Shown here: piece by piece, positions 6,560-64,000 of the stretch | Layout: each line of letters begins with the position of its first letter | Position numbering within the stretch: position 1 is the stretch's first letter | Source of the DNA: an uncultured bacterium | GTDB lineage: Bacteria > Zixibacteria > MSB-5A5 > GN15 > FEB-12 | Direction of reading: 5' to 3' | Length of the DNA stretch: 64,000 nucleotides | Assembly (NCBI GenBank): GCA_965372795.1 | Contig: CBDVDR010000017.1 | Span: forward strand, 14,796-78,795 | The notes under the pieces: generated by a model | The model's database searches: none | The model's input: only the letters and a program-made list of their open reading frames with translations | Told to the model about the DNA's origin: nothing | Translations under genes and position numbers: made by a program

Positions 6560-7609
6560 CTAATCTTCGAGTTCGGCGGTCGTCACCCTTGTAATTTCCT
6601 GATAAATATTTTCAGTGAATTTAAAACAACCGTCATTTGTCAAATGACATATATCATTAAAATGAATTCCATCCTTGGGAATCAATTGATTTTGATCTAC
6701 AAACAGAACCTGATTATGATTTTTAGAAATATTAGATAAAACTTGATTATGAACGCCTAAGCCTTTAATAATATTTTCAAATTGCCCCCATATCTCAATT
6801 GGATACTGATTGGAACTATATTCAAGAGATTTTTCTGCAAACGATTCAAGAGAATAATTATCCGGAACGAAAGATGCAAAACTCATCATAAGAATCTGTT
6901 CATCTTTCTGTTCAGCCAAATCTATTATACTTTCTAAATTATCTGAAAATGATTCTGCTGTTTTAATATCTGAACCGTACTGAAGCCATTCCTGGCGGGG
7001 TTGGTTCATTTCAATAAACTCTCGACCATTGATGAAATTATTGAACCGATTATAAAACAGTCTCGATACTGCAGGAATTGCAGAATACTCGAGCGATGAA
7101 CAACCTGTCAATAAATTGAGTTCGTTATACCAATCATAGTGTGAGTAATCTGTTTGAAATATATCCGGCGGACAATTGTTCGCCCGTAATTCGTTGATAC
7201 CATGATAAAGAACAACAAGATCAAAATTTATATTAATTAGTTGCGAATATTTATAGTAGCTGTCCAAAGATGTATGTGCCCGTTCGGCAAGATTAAATAT
7301 TTCAACATACTTACCGGTCGCTTCAGAAAGCATCTTCCCCATCGCAATTTGAATGTTCCCAAAATCATTATTCATCACCGAACCGCCCAGCAAAAGCACT
7401 TTATATGCATCTTTTGGTGATCGGTTTATCCCCCGCTTGATATGTTTTAATTCAGGATAATACTTATAGATGTAATCTATTGGAGTTATAAAAGATGTTT
7501 CATATTTCTGGACAAAGTAAACACGGGAAAGAATCTCTATCAAAAACAGAAAATAGATTGCAATTAAAAAATAAAAAATCGGCTTCCGCTGCCTCGTCTT
7601 AATCTCCAC
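6560..7609 (-). CDS. Membrane-anchored SGNH/GDSL hydrolase family protein
   Basis: N-terminal TM ending LIEILSR; LGGS block I, HGINE block III, DxxH block V (FNDICH). Confidence 0.75.
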   Translation of the reverse strand: MEIKTRQRKPIFYFLIAIYFLFLIEILSRVYFVQKYETSFITPIDYIYKYYPELKHIKRGINRSPKDAYKVLLLGGSVMNNDFGNIQIAMGKMLSEATGKYVEIFNLAERAHTSLDSYYKYSQLININFDLVVLYHGINELRANNCPPDIFQTDYSHYDWYNELNLLTGCSSLEYSAIPAVSRLFYNRFNNFINGREFIEMNQPRQEWLQYGSDIKTAESFSDNLESIIDLAEQKDEQILMMSFASFVPDNYSLESFAEKSLEYSSNQYPIEIWGQFENIIKGLGVHNQVLSNISKNHNQVLFVDQNQLIPKDGIHFNDICHLTNDGCFKFTENIYQEITRVTTAELED

Positions 7610-7727: not shown

Positions 7728-8777
7728 CTATTGATTGGACAACTCAATAACTTCCAATAGATTATCGACAAACTTCACACACCCCGAATCTGTTAAATGG
7801 CAGGCATCGTTAAAATATAGTTTCCGCTTCGGGATTAAAAGATTTTGATCAACATAAAATGTCTGTGGATTTTCCAGATGAAGCGATGCTATTACTTGGT
7901 TATGCTCTTTCAACCCTCGCCTGACATTCCCCGGATGGCCCCAAATTTCTACCGGATACTTATTGTCGCTATACTCAAGAGCCAATTTCTTAAAATCACT
8001 CAAGTTATAACTTAACGGGAGATAAAAAGCATAAGACGCAAGAACCAATTTTTCAGTTTTCGACTCAGCCAAATCAATTATCTTTTTATAATTTATAGCA
8101 AAGGCTTCTGCTGTCTTAATTGTAAAACCAAACTTCAGCCATTCATCTTTAATATAACTCGGGTCAAAAACTTCTTTCCTGCCGGAACTATGAAGATACT
8201 GCGCGTAAATCAACTTAAACGCTATCGGCAAAGTCAGCAAATTATTAAACGTATCAGTACTCAATGTATTCAGTTCGGCATACCAGCCATAATGACTATA
8301 ATCCAATTTAAATAATTCCGGCGGACAATTGTTGGCGCGAAGCTCATTAATCCCATGATACAAAATCACCAGATCAAATTTATAATCTTCCAACAGTTTA
8401 TATTTATAATAACTGTCTAAACTTGTATGAGCCATCTCGGCCAGATTAAAAAGCTTTACTGTTTTACCTAATGAATTGCTCAGCCTCTGTTCTAAAACTT
8501 CCCCAATACTTCCAAACTCCGGATTCAATACCGACCCGCCCAGCATCAAAACTTTATACTCAGCCTCAGAATTTTGATTTTCTTCTTCAACCTCTAGTAA
8601 TTCAGGATAAAAATGATAGATCGAATCTGTCGGTGCGATAAAACTTGCATCATATCGGATTACAAAATAAACCCGCGAAAGAATTTCAAGCAACACCAGA
8701 CAATAAATTGCAAATATTAAATATTTACCATATCTCTTGATTGAGCTGTTCTTATATTCAATTGGTCGAGTTTTCAT
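7728..8777 (-). CDS. Membrane-anchored SGNH/GDSL hydrolase family protein (paralog of 6560-7609)
   Basis: Same length (349 aa); shares LGGSV, AHTSLDSYYKY, YHGINELRANNCPP and FNDACHLT motifs. Confidence 0.75.
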   Translation of the reverse strand: MKTRPIEYKNSSIKRYGKYLIFAIYCLVLLEILSRVYFVIRYDASFIAPTDSIYHFYPELLEVEEENQNSEAEYKVLMLGGSVLNPEFGSIGEVLEQRLSNSLGKTVKLFNLAEMAHTSLDSYYKYKLLEDYKFDLVILYHGINELRANNCPPELFKLDYSHYGWYAELNTLSTDTFNNLLTLPIAFKLIYAQYLHSSGRKEVFDPSYIKDEWLKFGFTIKTAEAFAINYKKIIDLAESKTEKLVLASYAFYLPLSYNLSDFKKLALEYSDNKYPVEIWGHPGNVRRGLKEHNQVIASLHLENPQTFYVDQNLLIPKRKLYFNDACHLTDSGCVKFVDNLLEVIELSNQ

Positions 8778-8832: not shown

Positions 8833-8892
8833 TTCGTGTGTCTATTTTTCGTGTGTCTATTTTTCGTGTGCCTATTTTTCGTGTGTCCATTT
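8833..8892. repeat. 15-bp tandem repeat TTCGTGTGTCTATTT x4
   Basis: Units at 8833, 8848, 8863 and 8878, with single substitutions in units 3 and 4. Confidence 0.9.
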
Positions 8893-8927
8893 TTTGTAAG
8901 TAATTATTAAACCATATTGAACCATAC

Positions 8928-10332: not shown

Positions 10333-11166
10333 ATGGAATTTGATAACATTTTAGAAAAACTAATTGAGTGGGGTGCACTATACGGCACCAAAATTATCGG
10401 TGCCTTTGTAATTTTAGTCATTGGGAGAATTGTTACAGGAATAATTTCAAAACTTGTTCATCGACTTATGGTAAAATCAAGTTTGGATAATGCTCTGGTA
10501 CAATTTGCTACAACTCTGACAAGAATCACGATGTTAACTTTTGTAGTTCTGGCTGCGTTAAGCTCACTTGGGGTTGAAACAACTTCTTTTATTGCTATAT
10601 TGGGTGCTGCCGGTTTAGCGATTGGTTTTGCTCTGCAGGGATCGTTATCTAATTTTGCTTCGGGAATCATGTTGATTATTTTCCAACCCTTCAAAAGTGA
10701 AGACTTAGTTGAAGCTGGAGGGCATCTTGGGGTTGTAAGAGAAATTAATGTTTTTCATACTGTCATAATTTCATTGGATAATAAAAGAATTATAATACCT
10801 AACGGTAAAATTACAGGTGATAGCATTATAAATTATTCAGCTGAAGGATCTCTTCGTGTTGATATGGTTTTTGGTATCGCATATCATGATAATATCAGCA
10901 AAGCAAAAGGTATATTGGAAGACATCTTAAAAGCTGACGGCCGTGTTTTAGACGATCCGCCATTTACGGTTGTGGTAAAAGAACTGGGAAACAGTTCGGT
11001 TGATTTTGCAGTCAGACCGTTTGTTAAAGTTGCAGACTACTGGGCTGTGTATTATGATACAACCGAAAAGGTGAAAAAGGCTTTTGACGAAAAAGGTGTT
11101 ACGATACCATTCCCTCAACGCGATGTTCATTTTTACAAAGATTCAACCGAACCAATTTTGGAATAA
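10333..11166 (+). CDS. mscS: Small-conductance mechanosensitive channel
   Basis: GAAGLAIGFALQGSLSNFASG, IIIPN and IPFPQRDVH motifs. Confidence 0.93.
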   Translation: MEFDNILEKLIEWGALYGTKIIGAFVILVIGRIVTGIISKLVHRLMVKSSLDNALVQFATTLTRITMLTFVVLAALSSLGVETTSFIAILGAAGLAIGFALQGSLSNFASGIMLIIFQPFKSEDLVEAGGHLGVVREINVFHTVIISLDNKRIIIPNGKITGDSIINYSAEGSLRVDMVFGIAYHDNISKAKGILEDILKADGRVLDDPPFTVVVKELGNSSVDFAVRPFVKVADYWAVYYDTTEKVKKAFDEKGVTIPFPQRDVHFYKDSTEPILE

Positions 11167-11167
11167 T

Positions 11168-11292
11168 AGCCCGTAGGGCAGGACTCTTTAGCAGTTTTGC
11201 CAATCAGCCCGTAGGTCAGGTCTCTTTAGCAGTTCTGCCAATCAGCCCGTAGGTCAGGTCTCTCTTCTCTTGGAGACCTGATCTGCATACTG
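11168..11292 (+). repeat. 38-bp tandem repeat of a GTAG REP half-site ending in a full REP palindrome
   Basis: AGCCCGTAGG(G/T)CAGG(A/T)CTCT starts at 11168, 11206 and 11244; the third copy closes TCAGGTCTC..GAGACCTGA. Confidence 0.85.
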
Positions 11293-11329
11293 TATTTTTC
11301 ATAAAATAAATCATTTTCTTCTAAAAAAA

Positions 11330-11480
11330 TCCGTGTAACTCTTTAATTTATTTAGCAATACAGCGAAATGGGTTCGTTTCAACACTTCGTGTTTTTGACT
11401 CTGGCGAAACTTGCATACATGGAGTGATTTTCAAAATGGGTTCGTTTCCTCATTTTTATACTTGCGTATACTTCGAATGT
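11330..11480 (-). repeat. Dispersed structured non-coding element, inverted homolog of 33232-33440
   Basis: Reverse complement aligns with 33232-33335 (CGAAGTAT.CG.AAGTATAAAAA, AAACGAACCCATTT, CAAGTTTCGCCAGAG) and with 33393-33440. Confidence 0.8.
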
Positions 11481-11539
11481 TCTTGATACCGTAAATATTG
11501 TTTTCAAATACATTCTTATTTTTTATTTGAAATAAAACT

Positions 11540-11857
11540 CCCGTAGGTCAGGTCTCTCTTGGCTTCGAGACCTGATCTGCATCCTGTATTCTCAAAGTAT
11601 AGTTTCTTAGTTTTTCTCATAATTTTAGACATAACTTACCGTTCCTCTTTTCATAGAGAGGTATGAATTCTTATTCACTAATGAAATGATGTTGAATTTG
11701 TAAGTGAGTGAAGGAAGATTTCTTCGTAGGGTTCAGGCATGCCTGAACCATTTTGTGGGCGGCAGACGCCAACCACACCTCGTGTGCTCGTCTGCCCCAT
11801 CTTCACAATAATCGGGTGCCCCACTCCTTGGGGTGGGTTTCTATTCATCTTAACCAA
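11540..11857 (+). repeat. REP-like palindrome cluster (four different families)
   Basis: 11540 CCCGTAGGTCAGGTCTC..GAGACCTGATC; 11726 GTAG plus perfect palindrome GGTTCAGGCATGCCTGAACC; 11755 GTGGGCGGCAGACG..CGTCTGCCCC; 11814 GGGTGCCCCACTCCTTGGGGTGGG. Confidence 0.8.
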
Positions 11858-12065
11858 CTGAACACATCAGTACTATCTAGACATACTCTACTTCTACTTG
11901 ATATGAATATATTAATAATTATTGACAAAAAATTTCAACATTATATCTTAATATTGAAACACGCACATCATAGTAGTCACATTTAAAGCTTGATTGACAT
12001 AAACCTAACTTAAGAGTTGTCTTTTGAAAAGATTGTAATTCAACACTTTCAATAGTGGAGGAGAT

Positions 12066-13421
12066 ATGTTAAATATTTCGGAATGTCAATCAGATCTCAA
12101 TGAAGAAGAAATATTACAATGTCACTCAGAACTCATAGAGGACCTAAACTTTTTCCAAAGCACAGAATTTACAACCAAATTTCGCGATAATTTTAATTTA
12201 AAAAAACTTACACGAAAAAAGGGTATTAATGATCTGCAGAATAGAATTTCGAATTTCAGTTCAGAACCTTATTGTCATCAATTGTACTCATACATTGATG
12301 AATTAAGGATGTGGGGCAAACAACAAATTTTTTTATATAAATTTAAACCTGCTGATAAAAATGACACCTTTCTAAATGAGCTCTCCAAACCGGCATATAT
12401 TCAAGAAAATTTAAAGAATAAAAACGTCGAAAATGTATTTGAAAATAATATTTGTTACTTAAAATCTGAAAAGCCTATTTTGGCTCATGTATATTACGAA
12501 AACAAAAATAATAAAACTGTTAAATTGATATTCAAATGGATAATGACTCGCAAGTACTTTAAACTTGTTGGTAAAACGTATATGCCAAGAGAAATACGAT
12601 CGACCAGTTTTTTTGTTGTAAATTTGCTTGATGGCTTCGCAGAAATACGTCTACAACAATTACCACCCAACCCAAATTTGAATCCGATGCAAGAACGCGA
12701 TATGTATATAAAAGAAATTAACAAATATATCGACTTTCATAAATTTTCGTTGATAGAACTTAAACCGATTATGGAAATAATTCTGAAAAAAGCAATCTTT
12801 ACAAATAAAGCTGTAAATATTGTAAGTAGTAATAAGCCAGGTCATTTAATTTTTAAAAATTTATTTCCACGGTTTTACAAACACCCTGTTGCTAATAGTG
12901 TTTCAGCATATTGGACTTGTAAACAGGACATTATAGGTAAATCAAAAATTAATTTTACATTATTTAGAGAAAGTAACAGCATTAAATTAACGGGTGTAGT
13001 TGATCCTAAAAAATTAAATAAAATTTTAAATAAAATTTATGAAATCCATGAAGGTAATACTGATCCAATCGATCATATTCCATTTATAAGAAATGGTATT
13101 GTAGGTACAACGCTTAAACTTGTAGAAAATAAAGAAAAAACTGAGACTGTCCTGGTAACAACAGGGAGCCTCGGCGCATTTCTAATTTGGACTTTATGGG
13201 AGTTTTTGGTTGAATATATTAACCTTAAATTAACAGAACAGATTACTTGGCTCGATACAAATTATACTAAAAGTGTTGTAGAAATTTCATATATAATATT
13301 GTACTATGGAATTGACCGGATTATTCTTAGCATAAAATTTCTATTTATTCAAAGTCCTTTTAAGCTCATAAAGTTGATTGCGGATTCAAAAAATAAGAAG
13401 ATTACAGATTTGAGAACATAA
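12066..13421 (+). CDS. Hypothetical protein with C-terminal hydrophobic helices
   Basis: 451-aa ORF with GGAGG RBS and upstream TTGACA; AT-rich; no family recognised. Confidence 0.75.
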   Translation: MLNISECQSDLNEEEILQCHSELIEDLNFFQSTEFTTKFRDNFNLKKLTRKKGINDLQNRISNFSSEPYCHQLYSYIDELRMWGKQQIFLYKFKPADKNDTFLNELSKPAYIQENLKNKNVENVFENNICYLKSEKPILAHVYYENKNNKTVKLIFKWIMTRKYFKLVGKTYMPREIRSTSFFVVNLLDGFAEIRLQQLPPNPNLNPMQERDMYIKEINKYIDFHKFSLIELKPIMEIILKKAIFTNKAVNIVSSNKPGHLIFKNLFPRFYKHPVANSVSAYWTCKQDIIGKSKINFTLFRESNSIKLTGVVDPKKLNKILNKIYEIHEGNTDPIDHIPFIRNGIVGTTLKLVENKEKTETVLVTTGSLGAFLIWTLWEFLVEYINLKLTEQITWLDTNYTKSVVEISYIILYYGIDRIILSIKFLFIQSPFKLIKLIADSKNKKITDLRT

Positions 13422-13553
13422 GATTATTGTTTAAGAGAACAGAAAAGATGGGACATTGCCATACAAAATGATTTGTCACTATAATAGTTTTACTGATCCG
13501 TTTGATGTATCCGACAAACCATGCGTTTAAGCAACTACATACCATTGTCCCAA

Positions 13554-13597
13554 GGGTGCCCCACTCCTTGGGGTGGGTTTATGTTCATCTCAACCAA
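13554..13597 (+). repeat. 44-bp direct repeat of 11814-11857
   Basis: First 27 bp identical, 3 mismatches over 44 bp. Confidence 0.9.
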
Positions 13598-13821
13598 TAA
13601 ATCACATTCAATATCGACCCCACCGCAAACAACACCCACGCCAATCGAAACAAGTTGTAACCAAGCGGAGTAAACATCGCTTTATGCTTTTTCATGTTTT
13701 GCATGTCAAGCTTCACTGTCTCTCCGGGTGGATTATCCATTTTAAGTTTGTGGGTTGATACTGCCATCAGAATGAAGGCACAGAACCAGCATAATAGTGC
13801 GAGCACGAGAAGTATTTCCAT
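13585..13821 (-). CDS. Small two-TM membrane protein
   Basis: 78 aa, two hydrophobic segments, GAGGA RBS upstream. Confidence 0.6.
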   Translation of the reverse strand: MEILLVLALLCWFCAFILMAVSTHKLKMDNPPGETVKLDMQNMKKHKAMFTPLGYNLFRLAWVLFAVGSILNVIYWLR

Positions 13822-13861
13822 CGTCAGTCCTCTTTATAAATCCTGCGTTTATTTAAGTTTG

Positions 13862-14422
13862 TTATAAAATAGTATCTACATCATTAATAAAAAGCCTAAG
13901 AATATCCCCTTTGTTTAATCCTTTATTTGAATGCCCTAAATCTTTCCTTATTGCAAACAATAACTCTTCTAAACTTAGTAGCAGTAATGGACTTTTGGGA
14001 TCAGTTGCTGTTATTGTAGTTTGTCTAAATGCAACGAATGAATTTACAACTTGATCACCACCCCAAGGTATTAACTCTTGCATAAAACCTACTAAAAATG
14101 CTATAATTTCTTCATTTGTTTTTTTCTTTTCCTTTAACTCACCTGCAAATAAAGTATCAAATATAAAGTATATAAATTTTGTATAAATATCTCTTTTTTT
14201 CTCACTTTGCTCTTCTCTGATTATTTTTTTCTTCTCATATAAATTTGCAATTATTAATGAAAATACAGAAATCATTATTGTTCCACTAACTGCCACTACT
14301 GCGATAACTATATCATTATTCATACTCAAAATTTTATCTAAAACTAATTCGATTATTTTATAAATAAAGAATCCTGAAATTATTACAACAATAAGACTAA
14401 AAAACATACTACTATTTTTCAT
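13862..14422 (-). CDS. Hypothetical membrane protein (2 N-terminal TM plus helical domain)
   Basis: 186-aa AT-rich ORF with AAGGA RBS; hydrophobic N-terminus. Confidence 0.7.
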   Translation of the reverse strand: MKNSSMFFSLIVVIISGFFIYKIIELVLDKILSMNNDIVIAVVAVSGTIMISVFSLIIANLYEKKKIIREEQSEKKRDIYTKFIYFIFDTLFAGELKEKKKTNEEIIAFLVGFMQELIPWGGDQVVNSFVAFRQTTITATDPKSPLLLLSLEELLFAIRKDLGHSNKGLNKGDILRLFINDVDTIL

Positions 14423-14446
14423 AAATCCATCCTTCTATTAAAATTT

Positions 14447-14510
14447 GAGCAGGTTAGAAGCCCTACGCTCACGACAATTGTTTGGCAGCATCACAGGGAT
14501 GCCGCCCTAC
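14447..14510 (-). repeat. Two GTAG REP-like elements between islet genes
   Basis: Reverse strand reads GTAGGGCGGCATCCCTGTGATGCTGCC (14510-14484; same family as 10118 and 28636) and GTAGGGCTTCTAACCTGCTC (14466-14447). Confidence 0.7.
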
Positions 14511-14515
14511 TTGAA

Positions 14516-16237
14516 TTAAGACACTCTATCCTGAAAGTAATATTTAATGATTTTTACATTTTCATCAATTTCCTCAAAATTACTAAACAAAACTGAGGTA
14601 TAGTTTAATTCCATAAATATTTCTGGTAATTCAGTGGCAGCTAAACCTGGTAATATCACTAATAGAATTTCTTTTTGTTCAAATTTATCAGAATGAAGAT
14701 ATTCAATTAATTTTCTATAAAGAGATTCATCAATATTTGAATCAATAAAAAACAAAAAGGCTAAACTATTGGAAATATAACTTTCTGCTAAATATCTATT
14801 TGGGTCAAAACTTTCTAAGAAACTATCAGAATACGTCATGTGATTATAGCCAGACTCATTAAACATTTCAATTAATTTTGACAAGAATTCTTGAGGTATT
14901 GATTTCTCATTAAATATACTAACTCTAGAAAATGATTTAAGTTTTTTAGAATAATTTTCTTTCTTTCTTTGAGTCATCAGGAATTGAGTTGTTGTGGTTC
15001 TTTTGATGTCGTTTGACAACCACTCTTCACCAAATCCGGAACTTAGCAATTTGTATAATTCTGGATCAGAGTTACATTTCTTTGCAATAATTCTAATTTT
15101 ATCATCAGGTGAGTCAATTGGAATTTTATTTTTATTTATCCATTCTATAATTTCTGCACATAGATATTTGTGTTTAATAAGTAAATCAAAGATATATTCC
15201 CACCTTGATTGTAAACTTCTTGAAATTGCAAAGTATCCTATTGGAATTTTATCATCTTCATTCGAATTTATTTCATTAAATATCTCACAATCAATAAGAA
15301 GATTATTTACGAATCTAATAGTTGTTCTTGGATTGTTTCCGCACGCTGTACCAATAATTGGCAAAATTACTTTAAATGCATCACTATTCTCTATCTCTAA
15401 TTGCTCAATCAAACTATTTGAGAAGTTTTCCATTCGTTGGTCATGAGGTGGAATTGGAAAAGGTAACTGCACCATTTTGTCTAAGTATTTACTCCCCTCG
15501 TCACCTTTTAGCCCAAATTCTTTCTCAAACCTATGTTGCAAATATCCTTCAATAATTGTTCTGGCAACTCCAAGTATGAATACGAAACCCTTTTGTGATA
15601 GAACTAATTTGATGCTTTCAAGTAGCTTGACAGCGTTATCTGGAAAACATCTATCCAAATCATCTATTAGTACTACGACTTTGAATTCAGAATCAATCTC
15701 AATCTTTGAAAGAGTTTCAAATGCATCAAAATATAAACTTTTATCAAGCAAAGGATCAGTTCTCTGTTTATCACTATGATCGATCATATCTTTCGCAACA
15801 AATCCTGCTTCTATTTCAGCAAAACCCGGAATCTTTATTTTTGATTTTGCCGAAAATCCATAGGCAACTGCTTTTAATCCTCTAACAAAAGATTTAAGTT
15901 GTCCTTTAAGCTTTTGGTCTTCACTTTTAAAATTTTCTAATCCTTGTACAATAGTTGCAACAAGGGGTACAATAGGATGATCTTCCTGTTCAAAACGCCA
16001 GGCATTAAACCAAATCGTAATAATATTATTATTTTCCTCTAAATGCTTTTGAGTCAGTCTCAACAGGCTGGTCTTGCCTGAACCCCATTCACCGAATACA
16101 CCTATCGTAAATGGTCCGGTCGTTCCAGCCGCCGCATCGCCTAAAACTTTTGCATAAGTATGAAATCCAAGCCCATCTGTCTTAGAGTTATCATGCTCGC
16201 CGATTGCTTGATCTGATAATAATTTGAGTTTTCCCAT
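14516..16237 (-). CDS. KAP-family P-loop NTPase with a C-terminal TIR-like domain
   Basis: DGLGF, Walker A GEWGSGKT, WFNAW, Walker B LIDDLDRC, YLDKMVQLPF, NPR; last ~140 aa has an alternating beta/alpha TIR-like pattern (less certain). Confidence 0.85.
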   Translation of the reverse strand: MGKLKLLSDQAIGEHDNSKTDGLGFHTYAKVLGDAAAGTTGPFTIGVFGEWGSGKTSLLRLTQKHLEENNNIITIWFNAWRFEQEDHPIVPLVATIVQGLENFKSEDQKLKGQLKSFVRGLKAVAYGFSAKSKIKIPGFAEIEAGFVAKDMIDHSDKQRTDPLLDKSLYFDAFETLSKIEIDSEFKVVVLIDDLDRCFPDNAVKLLESIKLVLSQKGFVFILGVARTIIEGYLQHRFEKEFGLKGDEGSKYLDKMVQLPFPIPPHDQRMENFSNSLIEQLEIENSDAFKVILPIIGTACGNNPRTTIRFVNNLLIDCEIFNEINSNEDDKIPIGYFAISRSLQSRWEYIFDLLIKHKYLCAEIIEWINKNKIPIDSPDDKIRIIAKKCNSDPELYKLLSSGFGEEWLSNDIKRTTTTQFLMTQRKKENYSKKLKSFSRVSIFNEKSIPQEFLSKLIEMFNESGYNHMTYSDSFLESFDPNRYLAESYISNSLAFLFFIDSNIDESLYRKLIEYLHSDKFEQKEILLVILPGLAATELPEIFMELNYTSVLFSNFEEIDENVKIIKYYFQDRVS

Positions 16238-16328: not shown

Positions 16329-16472
16329 AAAAAAAGGCAGTCCGCCTTGGTGGACTGCCCTACTTAAATCTAACACTGGATTCCTGCTTTCGCAGGAATG
16401 ACAATTTGCTTTACATGCGAAGCAATAGACTAACCTCGTTAGTGGCTATGCCACTCGACACATGCGAAGCAT
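16329..16472 (-). repeat. Palindrome cluster downstream of the DUF35 gene: GTAG REP/terminator, GTCATTCC-type palindrome and small hairpins
   Basis: GTAGGGCAGTCCACCAAGGCGGACTGCC plus T-run (16363-16329); TGTCATTCCTGCGAAAGCAGGAATCCAG (16403-16376); CATGCGAAGCA x2; ACTAAC-CTC-GTTAGT; AGTGGC-TAT-GCCACT. Confidence 0.75.
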
Positions 16473-27814: not shown

Positions 27815-27921
27815 GTTGATACTATTATACGTATCTATTATACAATTGCCAAGTCAACAATTTTGGCGACATCATAGCTTTAGAATGAATTACATATATA
27901 TAGAATTATAAAGAGGTCTTT

Positions 27922-28362
27922 ATGCATGTTAATGAAGTATTGAATAAAAAAGGGATCAATGTTATTACAGCCGGACTGGATATGAAACTGCGCGAGGCTA
28001 TGAAGATTTTGATTTCCAACAAGATTAGTTGTTTGCCGGTATTGAACAGTTCTGATGATCTGGTTGGAATTATTAGTGATAAAGATATTTTTAAAGCGAT
28101 ATATAACAATGCTGAGGCGATTGATGAGGCGGTGGTTGAAAATCATATGACAACTAATTTGATCGTTGGGTTGATTGATGATGACATTAATTTTATTGCC
28201 GGACTTATGACAAAAAATAAAATCCGCCACATTCCAATTATGGAAAATGATAAATTGTCCGGGGTGCTTTCGGTTGGAGATATTGTCAAGGTCCAGATGA
28301 CTGACATGGAGGTTGAAAATAGATATTTGAAAGATTACATAGACGGCGCCTACCCGGGGTAA
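27922..28362 (+). CDS. CBS-pair domain protein
   Basis: LVGIISDKDI, MTKNKIRHIPI and GVLSVGDIVK. Confidence 0.9.
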   Translation: MHVNEVLNKKGINVITAGLDMKLREAMKILISNKISCLPVLNSSDDLVGIISDKDIFKAIYNNAEAIDEAVVENHMTTNLIVGLIDDDINFIAGLMTKNKIRHIPIMENDKLSGVLSVGDIVKVQMTDMEVENRYLKDYIDGAYPG

Positions 28363-28395
28363 GGATAACAGTGTTAATAAACACACTATATGTTA

Positions 28396-29003
28396 GTGGG
28401 CGGCAGACGCCCTCGTCTGCCCCATCCTTTTGTCATTTCGTGGGCGGCTGACGTCAACCACACTTCGTGTGCTCGTCTGCCCCATTCTCCACGTAGTATG
28501 TTCTTGAGTAGGTTAGTCCGCCAAGGCGGACGCGCTCCTGACAATTTTATATATTATATCGAACAGATTTGAGGGGTAAAATGTTCGATACTAGGAAGGC
28601 AGGATTATTATAGTCCTGCCTTTTTTATATTCTTTGTAGGGCAGGATCCCTGTGATCCTGCCATTTTATATGTTTCTTCGTAGGGCATGTTCTTGAGTAG
28701 GTCAGTGAGCCCCGTGCTCCTGACATCTGTCATTGCGAGCGAAGCGACGCAAGCTCAGTTCGTTGTTTCGTGGGCGGCAAACGTCAACAACACCACGTGT
28801 GCTCGTCTGCCCCACTCTCCGTAGGGAACTGGCATGCCTGTTCCACCCCAAAAAACACACAACGTGTGTCATTGCGAGCCATGCGACGTAATCTCAATTT
28901 TGATATTGTATTGTAATAATTGTCATTCCCACGAAGGCGGAAATCCAGTATTTTCCTTTAGTCCCGTAGGGTATGGTCTCTCTTGACTTCGAGACCTGAT
29001 CTG
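28396..29003 (+). repeat. Mosaic cluster of about 12 co-oriented palindromic (REP-like) elements of several families
   Basis: GTGGGCGGC..GTCTGCCCC at 28396, 28440, 28770; GTAG elements at 28508, 28636, 28697, 28821, 28966; GGCAGGA..TCCTGCC at 28598; TGTCATTGCGAGC at 28728, 28867; TGTCATTCCC..AATCCAG at 28921. Confidence 0.85.
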
Positions 29004-29039
29004 TCAGCAGAAAATTTCGAATATAATTCTTAAGTAGTC

Positions 29040-30800
29040 TTAATCTAAAATTACATATTCCAGATTCAAGTTTCTAATGCTTTCTAGAACCTCTTCATTT
29101 ACATTAGGGATACTTATAAACAAGATTCTTTTTGCGCGACTCAAAGCCACATAGTAAATCCTTGCATCATCAGAATCGGCATCAAGATGCTCGGAAGCAT
29201 TTAGCACATAACGTTGGAAGTCTCGCAATTCATCATAGTACACCAAGACTTTTTCAAATTCAGTACCTTTGGCACTGTGAATTGTGCGAATGGTGTCCTC
29301 AGACTTCGTGTCTACTCTGATATATCCCAGCAAGCTTGATACGCTATTGTTTTCGTAGAATGTCTTCGGACTTCCGGGCCGAAACGTTGAGCCTAATAGG
29401 AAAGAATGTTGAGCATGTATTCGATTCCTCAAATCTGTGTAATATTCGTATAGCGAACGTTGTCTTGTTCCATTCGCATTCAGGTCATCCAAAATACCAA
29501 TTGCTGTTTTTCGTAGCTCCAGTAACGAAACTCCTTTTCCCGCTTTGGATTTCAATGGTATCAGAACCTGCCTAATGCTGTCTTTATAAAGACCTTTTTG
29601 GTAGAACTTGAAACCCTTTAGAATGTCATGGATAACTTTAGCTCTGGCTGAATTCGAATCAGAAGCATAAAGCCCCTTGAGTAGATCGTCGCCACGTATT
29701 TCTGCTAGATTCCTAAGTACTTCAACCTCGCTATTCCTTCTCGCCAAAAGAAATACGTCTTCATGCCCGTTTTCCCCAAGCCAACCAAGCATTTGGGGAG
29801 TTGATCCCACCAAAACCTTAACCGAATCTCCATTGATTGCGCTTGATGCTGGCTCTTGTTGAATATCAGTTCTCATGCTATTTAACAATTCTATAATTCT
29901 TCTTGAAGAACGGTGATTCTTATCTAATTTGAAATCCCGTAAATTCTCCAATTGGAAATTTTCAAAGTCACTTCGCGATGCACCTGCGAATTTATATATT
30001 GACTGATATAAATCTCCGATTACACCTACCTTTGTATCGATTTCTGCAATCTTTTTGATAATCCACGTCTGTAATTCTGTAGTGTCTTGAAACTCGTCGA
30101 TAAAGATATAGGGGAACCTATTCCTGACGAACTCTAATACTCTTGGGCTTTTGGTTATGATTAGGTATGAGAAATAAAGAACGTCCTCATGATGCATTAT
30201 TCCGTCAAGCCAATATTTGCTTTTATAAATCCACAATTCGCGATTGCTAACCGGTATTGGTGCGCCCCTATTAGCCCGGCATAATAAATCAATCTCACTT
30301 CCGACAAAGGTATAATCCAAACTAGACAGTTGTTTGAATATTCGTATCTTATTGTCTGCGTAATTGAAGTGGATGTAACTTCTACCGTTTTCTTTCTCAA
30401 TCGTTGTTTTCCATCTTCTAATTTTATCACTGTGTGGGATATGATCTTCATGTCCATTGAGTAGGTCTGTATTAAACAACGCATTACCATCATTATCTTT
30501 CTCGATTAGATGACAAAATGGTTTGACAATATTGCGGTAGAGAAAGCTGTGAATGGTAGAGACATCAAATCTAGATTTATCGCAAATTAGTCGATCACGA
30601 ATTTCTTCTGTAGCCACATTTGTGTAGGTGATACAAGCAATCTTCCTAGTAGTATTGAGCCTTTGTGATTCTGTTAAGACTCTCGCCAGATGAGCTACCA
30701 GTGCCCTTGTTTTTCCCGCACCTGGACCCGCAAAAACACGGAAGTTTGTTTCGATATTATCTAAATCAGAAAAGAGGGGAAGTGAATTGATATCTACCAT
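29040..30800 (-). CDS. gajB: Gabija protein GajB, UvrD-like helicase
   Basis: AGPGAGKT, ITYTN, STIHSF, FIDEFQD, GDLYQSIY, NHRS, TIHSAKGTEF and YVALSRA; directly downstream of an OLD nuclease. Confidence 0.85.
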   Translation of the reverse strand: MVDINSLPLFSDLDNIETNFRVFAGPGAGKTRALVAHLARVLTESQRLNTTRKIACITYTNVATEEIRDRLICDKSRFDVSTIHSFLYRNIVKPFCHLIEKDNDGNALFNTDLLNGHEDHIPHSDKIRRWKTTIEKENGRSYIHFNYADNKIRIFKQLSSLDYTFVGSEIDLLCRANRGAPIPVSNRELWIYKSKYWLDGIMHHEDVLYFSYLIITKSPRVLEFVRNRFPYIFIDEFQDTTELQTWIIKKIAEIDTKVGVIGDLYQSIYKFAGASRSDFENFQLENLRDFKLDKNHRSSRRIIELLNSMRTDIQQEPASSAINGDSVKVLVGSTPQMLGWLGENGHEDVFLLARRNSEVEVLRNLAEIRGDDLLKGLYASDSNSARAKVIHDILKGFKFYQKGLYKDSIRQVLIPLKSKAGKGVSLLELRKTAIGILDDLNANGTRQRSLYEYYTDLRNRIHAQHSFLLGSTFRPGSPKTFYENNSVSSLLGYIRVDTKSEDTIRTIHSAKGTEFEKVLVYYDELRDFQRYVLNASEHLDADSDDARIYYVALSRAKRILFISIPNVNEEVLESIRNLNLEYVILD

Positions 30801-30803
30801 AGG

Positions 30804-32921
30804 CTAACTCAGAATAAACGTGATTGCATCAGAAATATACTCTGGTACAACAAATGCTTCACGATCTTCGCCTTTCTCTAAGTTATCCCTTAGCTGTTGC
30901 TCTAAATAGAGTGCATGTTCACCTTTTCTCTTCTTCAACGCCTGAGAGTAAACAGCTGCAATCAAAGCTTTCTTCTTTCGATCATCTTCCCACAGGCAAC
31001 CTTCAAGTGAGTCTATGATCTCAGAGTGATTAGAAAGGGCTTTAATTTCGGTGAGTGACTTTATCTGTTTGTGGGCATCTACAAGACTTATCATTACTTC
31101 TTTTCTGTTTTTGCCACGAGATGGAAACGAGTCAGTAATAAGTGATAAACAGTTGGGGTTATTGAATATCAAGTCATACTCAAGTGTCATGCCCACGCCT
31201 GCCGGTGACGAATATATGCTAATGTTTTGACTGCTTTCAACTGTAGACTGCAATATGCCTACATGCTTTGCCATCGACTTGTATTCATATGCCTCAGTGT
31301 CTTGATCTAGTTCGAAAGGATAACAACTATGCCATCTAACTTTCTTTCCGTGCTCATTAACGTCTGATCCTGGTGGGGGCTTATCTTTTCTGCATGGGTC
31401 TGTGTCAGTTATGCAGGCAACTTTCTTATTGATTGCAAAGCGTTTTGAATCCTTGTTATAAGTGAATAGTTTCAGGAAGTGGTCGAAAGTGCGACTGTCA
31501 ACACTCACTATGCAAACATGTTTGTTCAACAAGTCTTCTTCCTTACTCAAGTAAGAAGCAAGGCAGGGTAGTAATACTTGTTCAGCGAGCCCTTCAACAA
31601 GAATCACTCTTTCCGCGAATAGCATATTCGACTTTGTAGCGTCTAGGAACCGTTTTACATAATTTTTGGAGTTCACATCTTCTGGCGTGTCTGTGAATAC
31701 TTTGCCAGGATAACCCACCTGTTGCTTTCCCTCAATATCTTCGTACAAGCAAATCACCGCATCCAAATCCACTGCGGCAGTAATGTGTGTAGAATGTGAA
31801 GTGATGAATAATTGTCTTGCCTGCTCCTGCTTTTTGAGGTTATTGTCGAGAAACTGTAGAAATTTATATTGCATCGATGGATGCAGATGAGCTTCCGGTT
31901 CTTCTATTGCTAAAATGGGGAACACTTTTGCATTGTCGCCCATAAACCCCGAGCGTTGCATTTGCATCTTTGCAAGGATTAGGGCTATGAATAGCAGATT
32001 GTTGTATCCCAAACCGTTATGCGTAATCGGAAATGTAAAACCTGATTGCTCTACGATGAGCCTCAATGCGAAAAGTATTTCATGCTCGCTGATTGTAGCA
32101 TCGAAATCTGGTTTACCGCCTTTATCTGCCCCTGTTTCTTGCGAGTATTCAAGGATTTTCTCTTTTGAGATACGGTCTATTAGGTGCTGTAACAGAGCTT
32201 CCGATTTCTCGGAAAACTCTCGTTCTCTGTCTCTAAGGATTGACTTTGTCGCATCGTCTAATTCCTCAAATTGCTTCCCGTTAGAAACATCATAATCAAG
32301 AAAATAACGGAGTACATCTCTCAGTAGAGTATTGTTGCCATAGAACATTTGTCTTTCTGCGTCGCGGATCGCGTCGAGAAATTGAAAATCAAATCGATCA
32401 AGGTTTTCTGACTCCGCTCTCTCCTCGCGCTTTGGGTCACCTCCAAATATTTGTGATACATACTTATTGATAAATCTCTTACCTATTACGCTGAAGCAAT
32501 CCTTCTGGATATAATTTCCTTCTGCATCTTTGTGTTCTTCGATAACTTCCTTATATTCTTCCAAATGCTTACTGGGCAAGAAGAATGTATATGTTAATTG
32601 AGCTTCATATGGAGGTCCTTCGTTGATCAGCCAATCATATATTACATTCTTGTCATCGGGCTTTTCAGCATCAGGATGCTCAGTTATAGTAACTCTTATA
32701 TCTATGCGTGGTGGACTTGAAAAGTCATCGTATGTCTTATTGAAATCATCAATTGTTGGCCTGTTTCTTTGTTCCCTAGCAAATACAAATTGTAAAGCCC
32801 TCAGCACATTCGTTTTACCGGCATTGTTGTGACCAATTATTACATTTAGCCCAGGGGTAAATATGACTGATGTATCAATAAAGTTCCTAAAATTGGAAAT
32901 TTGAATATTAGAGATATACAT
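30804..32921 (-). CDS. gajA: Gabija protein GajA, OLD-family ABC-ATPase/TOPRIM endonuclease
   Basis: ISNFRN, Walker A GHNNAGKT, GLGYNN, EEPEAHLHP, TSHS, TOPRIM LVEGLAE and DTD; ATG start at 32921 (the ORF track extends to TTG 32936). Confidence 0.88.
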   Translation of the reverse strand: MYISNIQISNFRNFIDTSVIFTPGLNVIIGHNNAGKTNVLRALQFVFAREQRNRPTIDDFNKTYDDFSSPPRIDIRVTITEHPDAEKPDDKNVIYDWLINEGPPYEAQLTYTFFLPSKHLEEYKEVIEEHKDAEGNYIQKDCFSVIGKRFINKYVSQIFGGDPKREERAESENLDRFDFQFLDAIRDAERQMFYGNNTLLRDVLRYFLDYDVSNGKQFEELDDATKSILRDREREFSEKSEALLQHLIDRISKEKILEYSQETGADKGGKPDFDATISEHEILFALRLIVEQSGFTFPITHNGLGYNNLLFIALILAKMQMQRSGFMGDNAKVFPILAIEEPEAHLHPSMQYKFLQFLDNNLKKQEQARQLFITSHSTHITAAVDLDAVICLYEDIEGKQQVGYPGKVFTDTPEDVNSKNYVKRFLDATKSNMLFAERVILVEGLAEQVLLPCLASYLSKEEDLLNKHVCIVSVDSRTFDHFLKLFTYNKDSKRFAINKKVACITDTDPCRKDKPPPGSDVNEHGKKVRWHSCYPFELDQDTEAYEYKSMAKHVGILQSTVESSQNISIYSSPAGVGMTLEYDLIFNNPNCLSLITDSFPSRGKNRKEVMISLVDAHKQIKSLTEIKALSNHSEIIDSLEGCLWEDDRKKKALIAAVYSQALKKRKGEHALYLEQQLRDNLEKGEDREAFVVPEYISDAITFILS

Positions 32922-33163
32922 TACATTTTCACCCAATCTACTTTTATTAAATGTTAATCTTCCTACGCTTTTATGCCTTGCGACTATTTAAAATTGTTTA
33001 TCCCGTAGTCGATCCATAAATCTACAATATTATTATCCTTTTTGCTAATAATTATTCAATAAATATGCTCCTCCCCCACTTTCCCCACACTTTCAATGGT
33101 GAATGCGATAACGCACCCCTTTATAAAAGGAGGAACGGTAAGTTATGCCCAAAATCCCAACCA

Positions 33164-33440
33164 CGAAGTATGCGTAAGTATACAAAATTCACAAAATCAC
33201 ACCCTGCGACAAAACACTCTTTTATGCAAAAACACTCGAAGTATGCGTAAGTATAAAAAGTGAGCAAACGAACCCATTTCTACATATCACATATAGTGTC
33301 CAAGTTTCGCCAGAGAAAAACACACGATGTGTGAAAAATGTGCCTTTAAAGTACCGTAACAGTCGAAGTATGCGTAAGTATAAAAAGTAACAAAACGAAC
33401 CCATTTTGGTTGTACAAACATTGCCAACAATGACTTACAG
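33164..33440 (+). repeat. Structured non-coding element with three copies of CGAAGTATGCGTAAGTATA and two of AAACGAACCCATTT
   Basis: Copies at 33164, 33237 and 33364; homologous to 11330-11480 on the opposite strand. Confidence 0.8.
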
Positions 33441-33482
33441 CGAAAAAAATTATATTTTAGGGAGAAAAACACACTATGCCAC

Positions 33483-33535: not shown

Positions 33536-34093
33536 TCAGACTTCCATGACATCTTTTTCTTTAGCATCAAGCATTTTATCAATCCGTTGAATATGACCAT
33601 CAGTCAATTTCTGGATTTCATCATGTCCGTCAGCTTCCTGGTCCTCAGAGATTTCTTTATCTTTCTGAGCTTTCTTAAAGATGTCGTTATATTCTCTGCG
33701 GATACTCCGCAAAGAAACACGCCCATCTTCAGCAAGGTGTTTACAATGCTTAACCAGTTCTTTACGTCGTTCTTCATTCAGCGCCGGAATCGGGAGTCTA
33801 ATCATTTGTCCGTCGACTAAAGGATTCAACCCCAGATCGGCAGCCTGGATTGCTTTTGTGATGTCAGCAACCGTTGATTTATCAAAAGCCTGAACGATTA
33901 GCAGTCTTGGTTCGGGCGAGTTGATGGTTGCCAACTGATTTAATGGCATCTTTGAACCATAAGCATCAACTTTGATGGTGTCCAACAGTTGCGGAGTTGC
34001 TTTTCCGGTTTGAACCGCCATAAATTCTTTTGAGATGGCTTCGATGGTTTTATCCATCCGTTCATTTGCATCTTTGTATGATTGATCGAGCAT
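33536..34093 (-). CDS. frr: Ribosome recycling factor
   Basis: TGKATP, DLGLNP and IPALNEERRKELVK. Confidence 0.97.
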   Translation of the reverse strand: MLDQSYKDANERMDKTIEAISKEFMAVQTGKATPQLLDTIKVDAYGSKMPLNQLATINSPEPRLLIVQAFDKSTVADITKAIQAADLGLNPLVDGQMIRLPIPALNEERRKELVKHCKHLAEDGRVSLRSIRREYNDIFKKAQKDKEISEDQEADGHDEIQKLTDGHIQRIDKMLDAKEKDVMEV

Positions 34094-46191: not shown

Positions 46192-47685
46192 TTAATCATT
46201 TTCAAGTTTTAAAGCTACGGTTCTACTCCAACCATATTCAAATATCTGGAAATAAACTCGTTCGTTTTCCACTCTTAAGACATAGCCTTTTTTAACTTTA
46301 TCACCAGATTTCAGAATGTAGCCATATCCTGTTTTATCTTCTAATAAAGCTCTGTTGTTGCCACCAGTAGATTCAATGACACCTACTAATTTAAGACCTT
46401 CAACATTCGGCTTCCTTCTTTCAACTATAGTGTTATTAACTTTAGTTTCATTTATAAGAGTTTCAAACGGATCACGTCTATTACGACTTTTATATTTTAT
46501 AACTAATCGCTTCGGAAATTCCGCTACCATGGTTCCTTTAATTTTATTTGAAGCAACCGGAGATCTGCGGAATCTTGAAGTTTTTGATTTATTTACTTCT
46601 TTTTTCGCTAATACTTTTTTAGTTGGCTTCTTCTTAGGAGCAGCTTTAGCTACTGCTTTGGTAGTTTGTTTCTTAGGGGAAACTTTAGCCACTGCTTTGG
46701 TAGTTTGTTTCTTAGGGGAAACTTTAGCCACTGCTTTGGTAGTTTGTTTCTTAGGAGCAGCTTTTGCTATAACCGCTTTTTTCTTCTCAGGTTTAGATTT
46801 TACAGCAACAGATTTCGTTTGAAATTTCTTTTTCTCGGCAAAAACCGGTTTAGTTTTTAATTTCGGTTTTGGTGCTGGTCCAATTTTCACTTTATTTTTA
46901 TCAGTATTATCAACTTTTGCTTTGGATGATTTTCCTGATTTCTTTATAACCTGAACCGGTTTTACTTCTTTAGCAACCGGCTTTACTTCACGTTGCTCTG
47001 AAAAATTTAGTGCAAAGGCAGAATTCGACCACTTCGTTTCTTTTTTAGCAACCGTTACAACTGGTTTTGATTTCGGTTTTGTTACCGCAACTTTTGATGA
47101 CTGTAAACTGGATTGACGATCAGACTCTATCGACTTATTCAGTTGAGCAACCGTTTTTGAGGATTTTGATAAAACTTCTTTTTTTACGATTACTTTAGGA
47201 GTTTTCTTTAGTTGTTTCTTTTGTTTTAGCTCCTGTTTCAGGGCGACAACAACTGTTTTTGTAGTCCAGTTACTGAATGACTTATATGAATTTCCCGGAA
47301 TGGTAACCCTTACCTGCTTAGAATCAGAATCAATACTATAGACAGTTTCTTTTTTCATATCAAAAACTAAGCGGACAACTTTTTCAGGTGTAACAGAGTA
47401 TTGACTGGTTCTTAGTTTACTGATTGAGCAATTCGGTAATGCCATAAAATTTTTGGCGCCAATTTCATGAGTAGCCGAAAGGATATCTACAATAACTCTG
47501 AATGGCTTTCCATCTTTGGCTTCCACAGTCTGGTGTGTGTATCTGATGGTTCCATTAATATCAACAGCTGCCACCGTCTCTCCATTTTTATGACTCAGCT
47601 CAACATTAGTTACCTCGGCGGCATTGACATGCATTCCCAACAGAAACACAGTCGCGAGGAATATAAAGATCTTATTGTATTTCAT
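46192..47685 (-). CDS. AMIN domain plus Lys-rich linker plus PilP-like domain fusion
   Basis: Signal peptide; AMIN (PFRVIVDI..LRTSQY..VVRLVFDM); C-terminal RRDPF..LKLVGVI..ALLED..GYILKSGD typical of PilP; occupies the pilP slot between pilO and pilQ. Confidence 0.75.
   Translation of the reverse strand: MKYNKIFIFLATVFLLGMHVNAAEVTNVELSHKNGETVAAVDINGTIRYTHQTVEAKDGKPFRVIVDILSATHEIGAKNFMALPNCSISKLRTSQYSVTPEKVVRLVFDMKKETVYSIDSDSKQVRVTIPGNSYKSFSNWTTKTVVVALKQELKQKKQLKKTPKVIVKKEVLSKSSKTVAQLNKSIESDRQSSLQSSKVAVTKPKSKPVVTVAKKETKWSNSAFALNFSEQREVKPVAKEVKPVQVIKKSGKSSKAKVDNTDKNKVKIGPAPKPKLKTKPVFAEKKKFQTKSVAVKSKPEKKKAVIAKAAPKKQTTKAVAKVSPKKQTTKAVAKVSPKKQTTKAVAKAAPKKKPTKKVLAKKEVNKSKTSRFRRSPVASNKIKGTMVAEFPKRLVIKYKSRNRRDPFETLINETKVNNTIVERRKPNVEGLKLVGVIESTGGNNRALLEDKTGYGYILKSGDKVKKGYVLRVENERVYFQIFEYGWSRTVALKLEND
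46631..46768. repeat. 39-bp coding tandem repeat (PKKQTTKAVAKVS/AA) x3.5
   Basis: TTCTTAGG anchors at 46631, 46670, 46709 and 46748. Confidence 0.9.
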
Positions 47686-63801: not shown

Positions 63802-63875
63802 CGGGGTGTGGCGCAGTCCGGTAGCGCGCTTGCTTTGGGAGCAAGATGCCGGAGGTTCGAATCCTCTCACCCCGA
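63802..63875 (+). tRNA. tRNA-Pro (anticodon TGG), CCA not encoded
   Basis: Acceptor CGGGGTG/CACCCCG, D-arm GCGC..GCGC, anticodon arm CTTGC-TTTGGGA-GCAAG, T-loop TTCGAAT. Confidence 0.96.
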
Positions 63876-64000
63876 TAATATTATCAGTACAAGATGTCGT
63901 CGGTTCCCCCCTAAAGGGGATACAAGAATCCTCTCACCCCGATTTTATTATCAGTACAAGATGTCGTCGGTTCCCCCCTAAAGGGGATACAAGAATCCTC
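63859..64000 (+). repeat. 67-bp tandem repeat derived from the tRNA-Pro 3' half (runs off the window end)
   Basis: GAATCCTC starts at 63859, 63926 and 63993 (period 67); the two complete units differ at 2 positions. Confidence 0.92.

Follow-up and report, generated by a model that had tools for sequence, protein, structure and literature searches.

The segment at 33.2 kb of the window, which is the whole 64,000-nucleotide stretch of DNA analysed here (bases 14796-78795 of contig 17, in a genome of 3.35 Mb, 69 contigs and 38% GC), belongs to a family of dispersed, polar repeats found at the borders of low-GC accessory islets. The preferred reading, held tentatively and with a probability of roughly 0.4, is that the repeat is a resident boundary or landing element operating at the level of DNA, with low-GC cassettes joined at its head edge and its tail facing the core genome. 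The family itself, its anatomy and its polarity are well supported, and the mechanism is what we infer from them. A limited literature search returned no description of an element of this kind in the phylum.

The original prediction described an element of two copies, in which the plus strand at 33.2 kb was said to align with the reverse complement of a segment at 11.4 kb, each beside an accessory islet. The alignment is real (I1, 65 nt at 77%; I2, 42 nt at 81%; I4, 33 nt at 88%) and reaches further than first noted, from about 33077-33449 on the plus strand against 11700-11331, and the placement beside two accessory islets was borne out for both copies. Copy A is situated between the frr terminator and the region upstream of gajA; copy B has an mscS-type gene on one side and, on the other, a block of three genes of which the last encodes a KAP NTPase, and it carries an unrelated REP-type repeat nested at 11540-11590. 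The hairpin with a GNRA-type loop does occur three times in the plus-strand copy, as a module starting at 33158, 33231 and 33358 (family D6), and both of the stem and loop differences quoted between the two copies are present in the DNA. On the minus strand, the 13-base hairpin of copy A is followed by a T run and was scored as terminator-like in a consensus scan. The features of the two copies and of their surroundings are collected in Table 1.

Table 1. Element copies A and B and neighbouring features, in window coordinates.
Feature	Position	Strand	Details
Copy A	33077..33449	+	Head, linker with inserted modules, two tail units; 5' edge is the invariant CA dinucleotide 33077-33078 (alignment A1)
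Copy A head	33077..33159	+	nhmmer E = 2.7e-26
Shine-Dalgarno-like motif and ATG in copy A head	ATG 33145-33147	+	
Hairpin module with GNRA-type loop, copy 1 of 3	33164..33182	+	Repeat family D6
Hairpin module with GNRA-type loop, copies 2 and 3	33237-33255, 33364-33382	+	Within copy A
14-base box, tail unit 1 of copy A	33266..33279	+	49 copies genome-wide at <=1 mismatch
13-base hairpin module in copy A	33321..33333	+	5-pair stem, 3-base loop
Terminal tail unit of copy A	33393..33449	+	Tail model match 7e-17; alignment A2 (39 tail units)
Parts of the terminal tail unit	box 33393-33406	+	Box, short stem around variable patch, conserved A-rich end
frr	33536..34093	-	Core gene on tail side of copy A
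gajA	30804-32936	-	Head-side cargo of copy A; Pfam; PADLOC GajA 5.4e-253
gajB	29040-30800	-	Head-side cargo of copy A; Pfam; PADLOC GajB 9.3e-164
Cluster of other short palindromic repeats	28387..29039		Far border of Gabija islet; ~650 bases
Copy B	11331..11700	-	Head 11618-11700; boxes 11434-11447 and 11366-11379
mscS-type channel gene	10333..11166	+	Core gene on tail side of copy B
Head-side cargo of copy B	12066..16237		451-aa and 186-aa proteins of no known function; KAP-family NTPase (14516-16237)

A profile search of the genome for further copies replaced the two-copy picture with one of about 26-31 copies. A DNA search of the genome returned 102 matching pieces, and with nhmmer a profile of the head (the first ~100 bases) matched 31 places at E<=1e-3, a number that falls to 26 at E<=1e-10, and a profile of the tail unit (the region around the box) matched 61 places. 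The alternative offered in the original prediction, a mobile or dispersed repeat, was therefore right in kind. Copies were observed within about 1.3 kb of the ends of C9, C10 and C33 and of the start of C30; the repeat thus probably breaks the assembly, and the copy numbers are to be taken as lower bounds.

The plan of the element is a head of ~95 bases, followed by an A-rich linker and one to four tail units, each with an invariant 14-base box. When 26 heads were aligned (A1), the 5' edge was sharp, at an invariant CA, the central 45 columns contained no indels, and a TATA-like block stood at a constant distance from a conserved block upstream of it; the 3' end of the head consists of a Shine-Dalgarno-like motif and an ATG. 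The linker measures 103 bases in the five copies that are uninterrupted. Tail units lie downstream of a head in the same orientation in 57 of 61 cases, with one to four per head, and the remaining four are found at three places. Successive units are 40-200 bases apart, and the 39 that were aligned share three features: the box, a short stem that encloses a variable patch, and an A-rich end that is conserved. Many copies contain nested small repeats, namely the 13-base hairpin, the 20-base GNRA module and REP-type palindromes. About 86 perfect-stem sites of the 13-base hairpin were counted in the genome, far above the number of element copies, and the hairpin thus behaves like a separate small repeat family.

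Judged by the mean identity of 72% among heads, the copies are old. The closest two have heads that are 96% identical, and their likeness begins exactly at the head edge and continues at ~95% over roughly 270 bases; the cargo that they adjoin is unrelated, a STAND NTPase in one case and SoFic in the other. What these two have in common is the element and not the cargo, which indicates that the copied unit is the element alone.

The most consistent property of the family is its orientation. Open reading frames at 26 loci were taken by a crude longest-ORF rule, and 105-108 flanking proteins were scanned with Pfam and PADLOC. In 27 of 28 comparisons the head-side gene had a lower GC content than its tail-side counterpart (32.6% vs 42.1% on average; Wilcoxon p = 4e-7), where two two-headed loci share one gene and three heads are without a partner gene. 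At copy B, for instance, the values were 0.286 for the head-side gene and 0.367 for mscS. The trough is confined to the head side, with 32-36% GC across about 3 kb compared with 40-42% on the tail side, and for 22 of 31 heads a 1.5-kb segment of <=33% GC is found no more than 800 nt away; the element is present at just 17 of the 185 such low-GC segments of the genome. The exception to the polarity is a head on contig 18 that abuts a core-like ABC-F gene. Flanking genes were found in co-directional, divergent and convergent layouts, and the polarity holds regardless of gene direction, which makes it unlikely that promoter or terminator activity is responsible for it; an insulator role was rejected as its cause on the same grounds.

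The genes on the two sides also differ in kind. Specific PADLOC matches were obtained on the head side of 9 of 26 loci, and comprise Gabija, Hachiman, Shedu with a KAP NTPase, AbiEi/AbiEii, SoFic (two loci), a type II methylase with an EcoRII-type enzyme and Vsr, a PDC-M48B-like protein with a helicase, and a QatA-like NTPase; the KAP-family NTPase beside copy B gave QatA/PDC-S20-like matches. Pfam added two NB-ARC STAND NTPases, a Roc-COR protein, a SocA/Panacea pair (SocA antitoxin) and DUF4238, and many head-side proteins have no known family. Tail-side genes are of the housekeeping type, among them frr, mscS, cdaA/folP, an aminoacyl-tRNA synthetase gene with recO, mnmA and queA, and further include genes for histidine ammonia-lyase, gatD/gatE, gyrA, secA and similar.

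The site of copy A was compared with related loci to assess what lay there without the islet. The frr gene and the homologue of the gene at 27880-28386 are adjacent, 46-304 bases apart, in 14 of 14 related loci in which both were detected, and neither gajA nor gajB is present in any of 42 related loci. On this comparison the Gabija islet is an insertion between frr and its usual neighbour. Neither the head model nor the tail model gave a significant match in the same 42 loci (275 kb in total), and a search for closer strains in metagenomes through Frr gave a best match of 72% identity and hence no pair of empty and occupied versions of the site. The repeat cluster at the far border of this islet includes at least five palindromic repeat families, several of which recur at 11168-11296, 11744-11867 and 16372-16406.

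Copies of the box were found well outside this genome. A DNA search of 40 relatives did not find the whole head, a 20-base head pattern gave only three chance matches when searched in one genome per species, and phage and plasmid records held no similar sequence. In a search of 285 genomes of the phylum with two candidates scored per genome, matches were obtained in at least 11 of the 284 other genomes, from four families. These matches are 25-43 bases long with 84-100% identity (most 96-100%), and nearly all fall on the box region. They number 47 in G021, a genome of the same family, 42 in G039, from another family, and 4-8 in three other genomes. The 14-base box is identical in all of these and the flanks are specific to each genome; boxes occur in tandem, and head-like parts are recognisable upstream of them. 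In one further genome (L146 of G134, about 1390-1450, minus strand), a full box has just upstream of it a tandem repeat of 17 bases, in which the unit includes a shortened box.

The polarity recurs in G039, where GC stands at 47.7% in the 2 kb upstream of the arrays and at 53.3% in the 2 kb downstream, with the upstream side lower in 19 of 21 arrays (p = 2.4e-5); in G021 it was not significant (15 of 22, p = 0.19). Defence genes as cargo did not hold up as a general rule, since only 1 of 33 head-side proteins of G039 had a specific defence match and the head-side genes of G021 are mixed in kind. Five of 20 loci in G021, which belongs to another genus, are syntenic with element loci here (frr, NFACT, aaRS-recO, glnA-deaminase and aconitase), and at all five the head-side genes differ from those of the window's genome; at frr and NFACT the tail is turned toward the same core gene as here. 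Frr of G021 is 67% identical to that of the window's genome, compared with 62-70% for relatives without the element at frr. G021 is thus no closer than relatives that lack the element, so that the shared sites point either to a strong preference for particular sites or to an old inheritance followed by many losses. An observation of a different sort comes from G039, where a two-gene block of low GC (376 aa and 177 aa; GC 0.39-0.42) lies between inverted box arrays (L176, 3534-6024), the same two-ended plan as that of six islets in the window's genome.

RNA structure was assessed at the level of the segment, the family and the modules. Folding of 33164-33440 was close to that of shuffled sequences (z = -0.97 on the plus strand, with 32 of 200 shuffles folding equally well, and z = 0.05 on the minus strand), and the mean z-scores of heads and tails lay between -0.4 and -1.1. 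The RNAalifold consensus was empty (0 pairs) both for 26 heads and for 39 tail units, and comprised 24 weak pairs (-6.6 kcal/mol) for five canonical copies. Three hairpins drawn by hand in the head were paired in 79.0% of cells, compared with 77.5% after shuffling, with 53 of 500 shuffles reaching the observed value and no covariation above the shuffled background. On these data a global RNA fold was rejected. The Rfam check gave a tRNA at 63802 as the sole match in the window, with weak matches (14-22 bits) near the element between 33409 and 33535, mostly over the frr terminator, and hence no family for the element.

The two hairpin modules behaved differently from what had been claimed for them. 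The covariation proposed for the GNRA hairpin is not upheld, as the change between the copies is one-sided, from G-U to A-U. The 20-base module is found in only about 14-15 places genome-wide and is missing from most element copies; it constitutes an indel between two 96%-identical copies, and the same stretch can be read alternatively as two direct 9-10-base units. A GNRA-type loop is present in 14 of 15 module copies, and the stem mostly has a wobble pair, with pairing that works on the plus strand only. As to the compensatory outer pair of the 13-base hairpin, the pair does differ between copies A and B and compensatory changes are enriched genome-wide, with 54 of 143 matches that carry two stem changes still fully paired, in four different ways (one hairpin site may be counted twice, once per strand, and the copies are not statistically independent). 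No significant covariation was seen across the element. The real pairing signal is confined to the 13-base hairpin module.

No coding signal was detected across copies. A small (basic) protein was rejected: the frame is open from the head ATG through the box in just 5 of 27 copies, the box frame offsets are 13/8/6, and the differences per site by codon position (0.30/0.34/0.35 and 0.26/0.35/0.34) show no excess at the third position. In the absence of both a fold and frame conservation, the family is preserved as blocks of sequence, as neither a fold nor a protein.

Among the alternatives to a DNA-level boundary element, a multicopy family of small-RNA genes survives best, and we regard it as unlikely. 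The head would then be a promoter, the transcript would be A-rich with one to four 14-base motifs serving as seed or protein-binding site, and the genes would either coincide with insertion hot spots or act as such themselves, as tRNA genes do. The indel-free centre of the head and the fixed distance of the TATA-like block are consistent with this, as conserved head spacing could reflect a promoter, and so are the head-like parts upstream of boxes in other genomes, the conservation of a short motif alone while the rest varies between genomes, which is usual for sRNA seeds, and the wobble pairs of the GNRA module. However, a consensus scan found neither a plus-strand promoter in the head (3 promoter-like sites vs 3.3 expected) nor a plus-strand terminator, no consensus fold or Rfam family was obtained, and ~thirty copies per genome with frequent nested insertions would be unusual for an sRNA gene. 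The fixed polarity toward cargo, irrespective of gene direction, would also be left unexplained.

Somewhat less probable again are the ends of non-autonomous transposons, in which the box arrays would be multiple transposase-binding sites with the cargo inside, and single-ended islets would be those from which the second end has disappeared. The conserved 14-base site, directly repeated at one end, points in this direction, as does the presence of inverted copies at both ends of 6 of 26 islets, with head plus tail in four (contigs 1, 8, 9 and 23) and tail only in two (contigs 5 and 13); the two-ended islet of G039 is a further case. The ends of Tn7, Mu and Tn402 carry several direct copies of a protein-binding site and are inverted, and defence genes are typical cargo of such transposons. 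Against this, inspection by eye of the outer ends of the six two-ended islets revealed no target-site duplications, which old copies could have lost; four element copies examined had no terminal inverted repeats, and no partial head edges or tail ends were found at the far borders of the cargo. The window's genome, which is 98.65% complete, gave no match to an rve-type transposase (one was found in G021 and three in G039). The element also differs from those transposon ends in having anything from 1 to 4 tail units, spaced 40-200 bases apart, and the closest two copies are alike in the element and unlike in cargo.

Partner enzymes were also sought beyond the rve type. No recombinase or transposase gene adjoins any element copy, and the four tyrosine and four large serine recombinase genes of the genome are all located away from the copies. 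An IS91-type search gave no match in the window's genome or in any control genome, and therefore carries no weight. Mobilisation as a REP/REPIN by a RAYT was rejected, as the three Y1 transposase (Y1_Tnp) genes have no head, box or tail end nearby and the whole element is not palindromic; an IS200/IS605-derived element (PATE) or a TnpB guide RNA was rejected as well, since the Y1 genes are not associated and the TnpB zinc-ribbon had no match in the window's genome.

Passive accumulation is improbable. A REP/BIME- or BOX-like mosaic repeat could gather in permissive intergenic DNA such as islet borders, and the age of the copies and the abundance of other short palindromic repeats in the genome, nested in and around the element, are in keeping with this; it does not, however, predict a fixed orientation (27/28 here and 19/21 in G039), a box that is invariant across families of the phylum, or the re-use of five identical sites in another genus. 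Least probable is the reading favoured by the original prediction, a structured non-coding RNA with GNRA hairpins kept by covariation, for which the near-constant GNRA-type loops, the plus-strand wobble and the compensatory changes of the 13-base hairpin can be cited, and which founders on the lack of a consensus fold, of head covariation and of an Rfam family, on weak z-scores and on a GNRA module that is dispensable.

Among known systems, the element is closest in form to BOX and BIME, in setting to core defence hot spots, and in logic to an integron platform or a multi-site transposon end. BOX of Streptococcus pneumoniae has the anatomy A-B(n)-C, and BOX and the BIME of enterobacteria resemble the element in being modular, non-coding repeats that are dispersed through intergenic DNA and differ in how many internal units they contain, and in clustering with other small repeats that nest inside them. 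There is no sequence relation, and we know of no BOX or BIME that has a fixed orientation to foreign DNA, that carries an invariant 14-base box common to a whole phylum, or that occupies syntenic sites at which the cargo changes. The clustering of BOX, RUP and SPRITE is described in a review (PMC10969869). The same review reports that identical MITEs flank class 1 integrons in Acinetobacter, and that non-autonomous repeats bracket accessory genes, to which the six islets bracketed by inverted copies can be likened; a MITE itself was rejected, as the element has neither terminal inverted repeats nor target duplications, and most islets are single-ended.

In E. coli, hot spots of defence islands hold lower-GC defence systems between conserved core genes, often without a mobile-element gene. 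The core defence hot spots cDHS1 and cDHS2 of Pseudomonas aeruginosa likewise carry lower-GC defence systems between core genes, with an origin left unexplained and with 29% and 47% of sites lacking a mobile gene, according to the sections of PMC10250203 consulted. Flanking genes serve to define those hot spots, and the same sections describe no sequence element common to their borders, whereas here ~26 small hot spots share one polar repeat. The hallmark of such a hot spot, the same core flanks with different content, is seen at frr, which is without an insertion in the 14 related loci and has the element with other genes in G021, and four more sites are shared with that genome.

An integron platform is a constant, sharp-edged sequence with variable cassettes on one side and direct repeats, the integrase sites of attI, behind the edge. 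The element differs from it in having no adjacent integrase, no recognisable attC-like site at the far ends of the cargo and no cassette arrays, with a single cargo block per site, and in that its platforms are dispersed over the chromosome. A true attI/attC integron was ruled out on this basis, none of the four tyrosine recombinase genes being near a copy. An att-type crossover would duplicate the head edge beyond the cargo, and no such duplicate was found there.

A few unrelated repeats were noted elsewhere in the window. A tRNA gene at 63802-63875 is followed by tandem 67-base direct repeats (63859-63925 and 63926-63992, 97% alike) that begin within the tRNA 3' end and resemble the duplicated attachment sites of an integrated element. 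At 46613-46767 a repeat with a 39-base period is present in three overlapping copies, probably within a coding region, and a 15-base unit is present in four to five tandem copies at 8833-8907. The segments 7108-7573 and 8261-8723, 1150 bases apart, are 74% alike and are probably tandem paralogous genes.

The boxes are conserved across genomes, and sites are re-used with different cargo in another genus. Together with the sharp constant edge, the one-sided low-GC variable DNA, the independence of gene direction and the direct repetition of the box, this argues for a resident element acting at the level of DNA. In the mechanism that we propose, the boxes are probably binding sites for a protein acting in trans, which might be a recombinase, a transposase or an architectural protein, and foreign gene cassettes of low GC, in this genome often anti-phage systems, would be joined at the head edge of the element. 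A more ambitious version of the same reading, and a doubtful one, is a dispersed gene-capture platform throughout the phylum, in which the boxes would recruit the putative protein and foreign cassettes would be joined in one orientation. If true, this would be an integron-like system without a linked integrase, at about 25-45 chromosomal sites per genome, and would account for the building of 'scarless' defence hot spots.

Defence islands of bacteria are often found between core genes without a trace of how they arrived, and in this genome ~26 small islets share one polar border element. If a boundary element of this kind is where foreign DNA is joined, the origin of hot spots would become testable by a search for a box-binding protein. 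Many of the head-side proteins belong to no known family, and the element is therefore a practical marker for new accessory genes. Should it prove instead to be an RNA gene or a transposon end, it would still represent an abundant and undescribed family in a phylum without cultured members.
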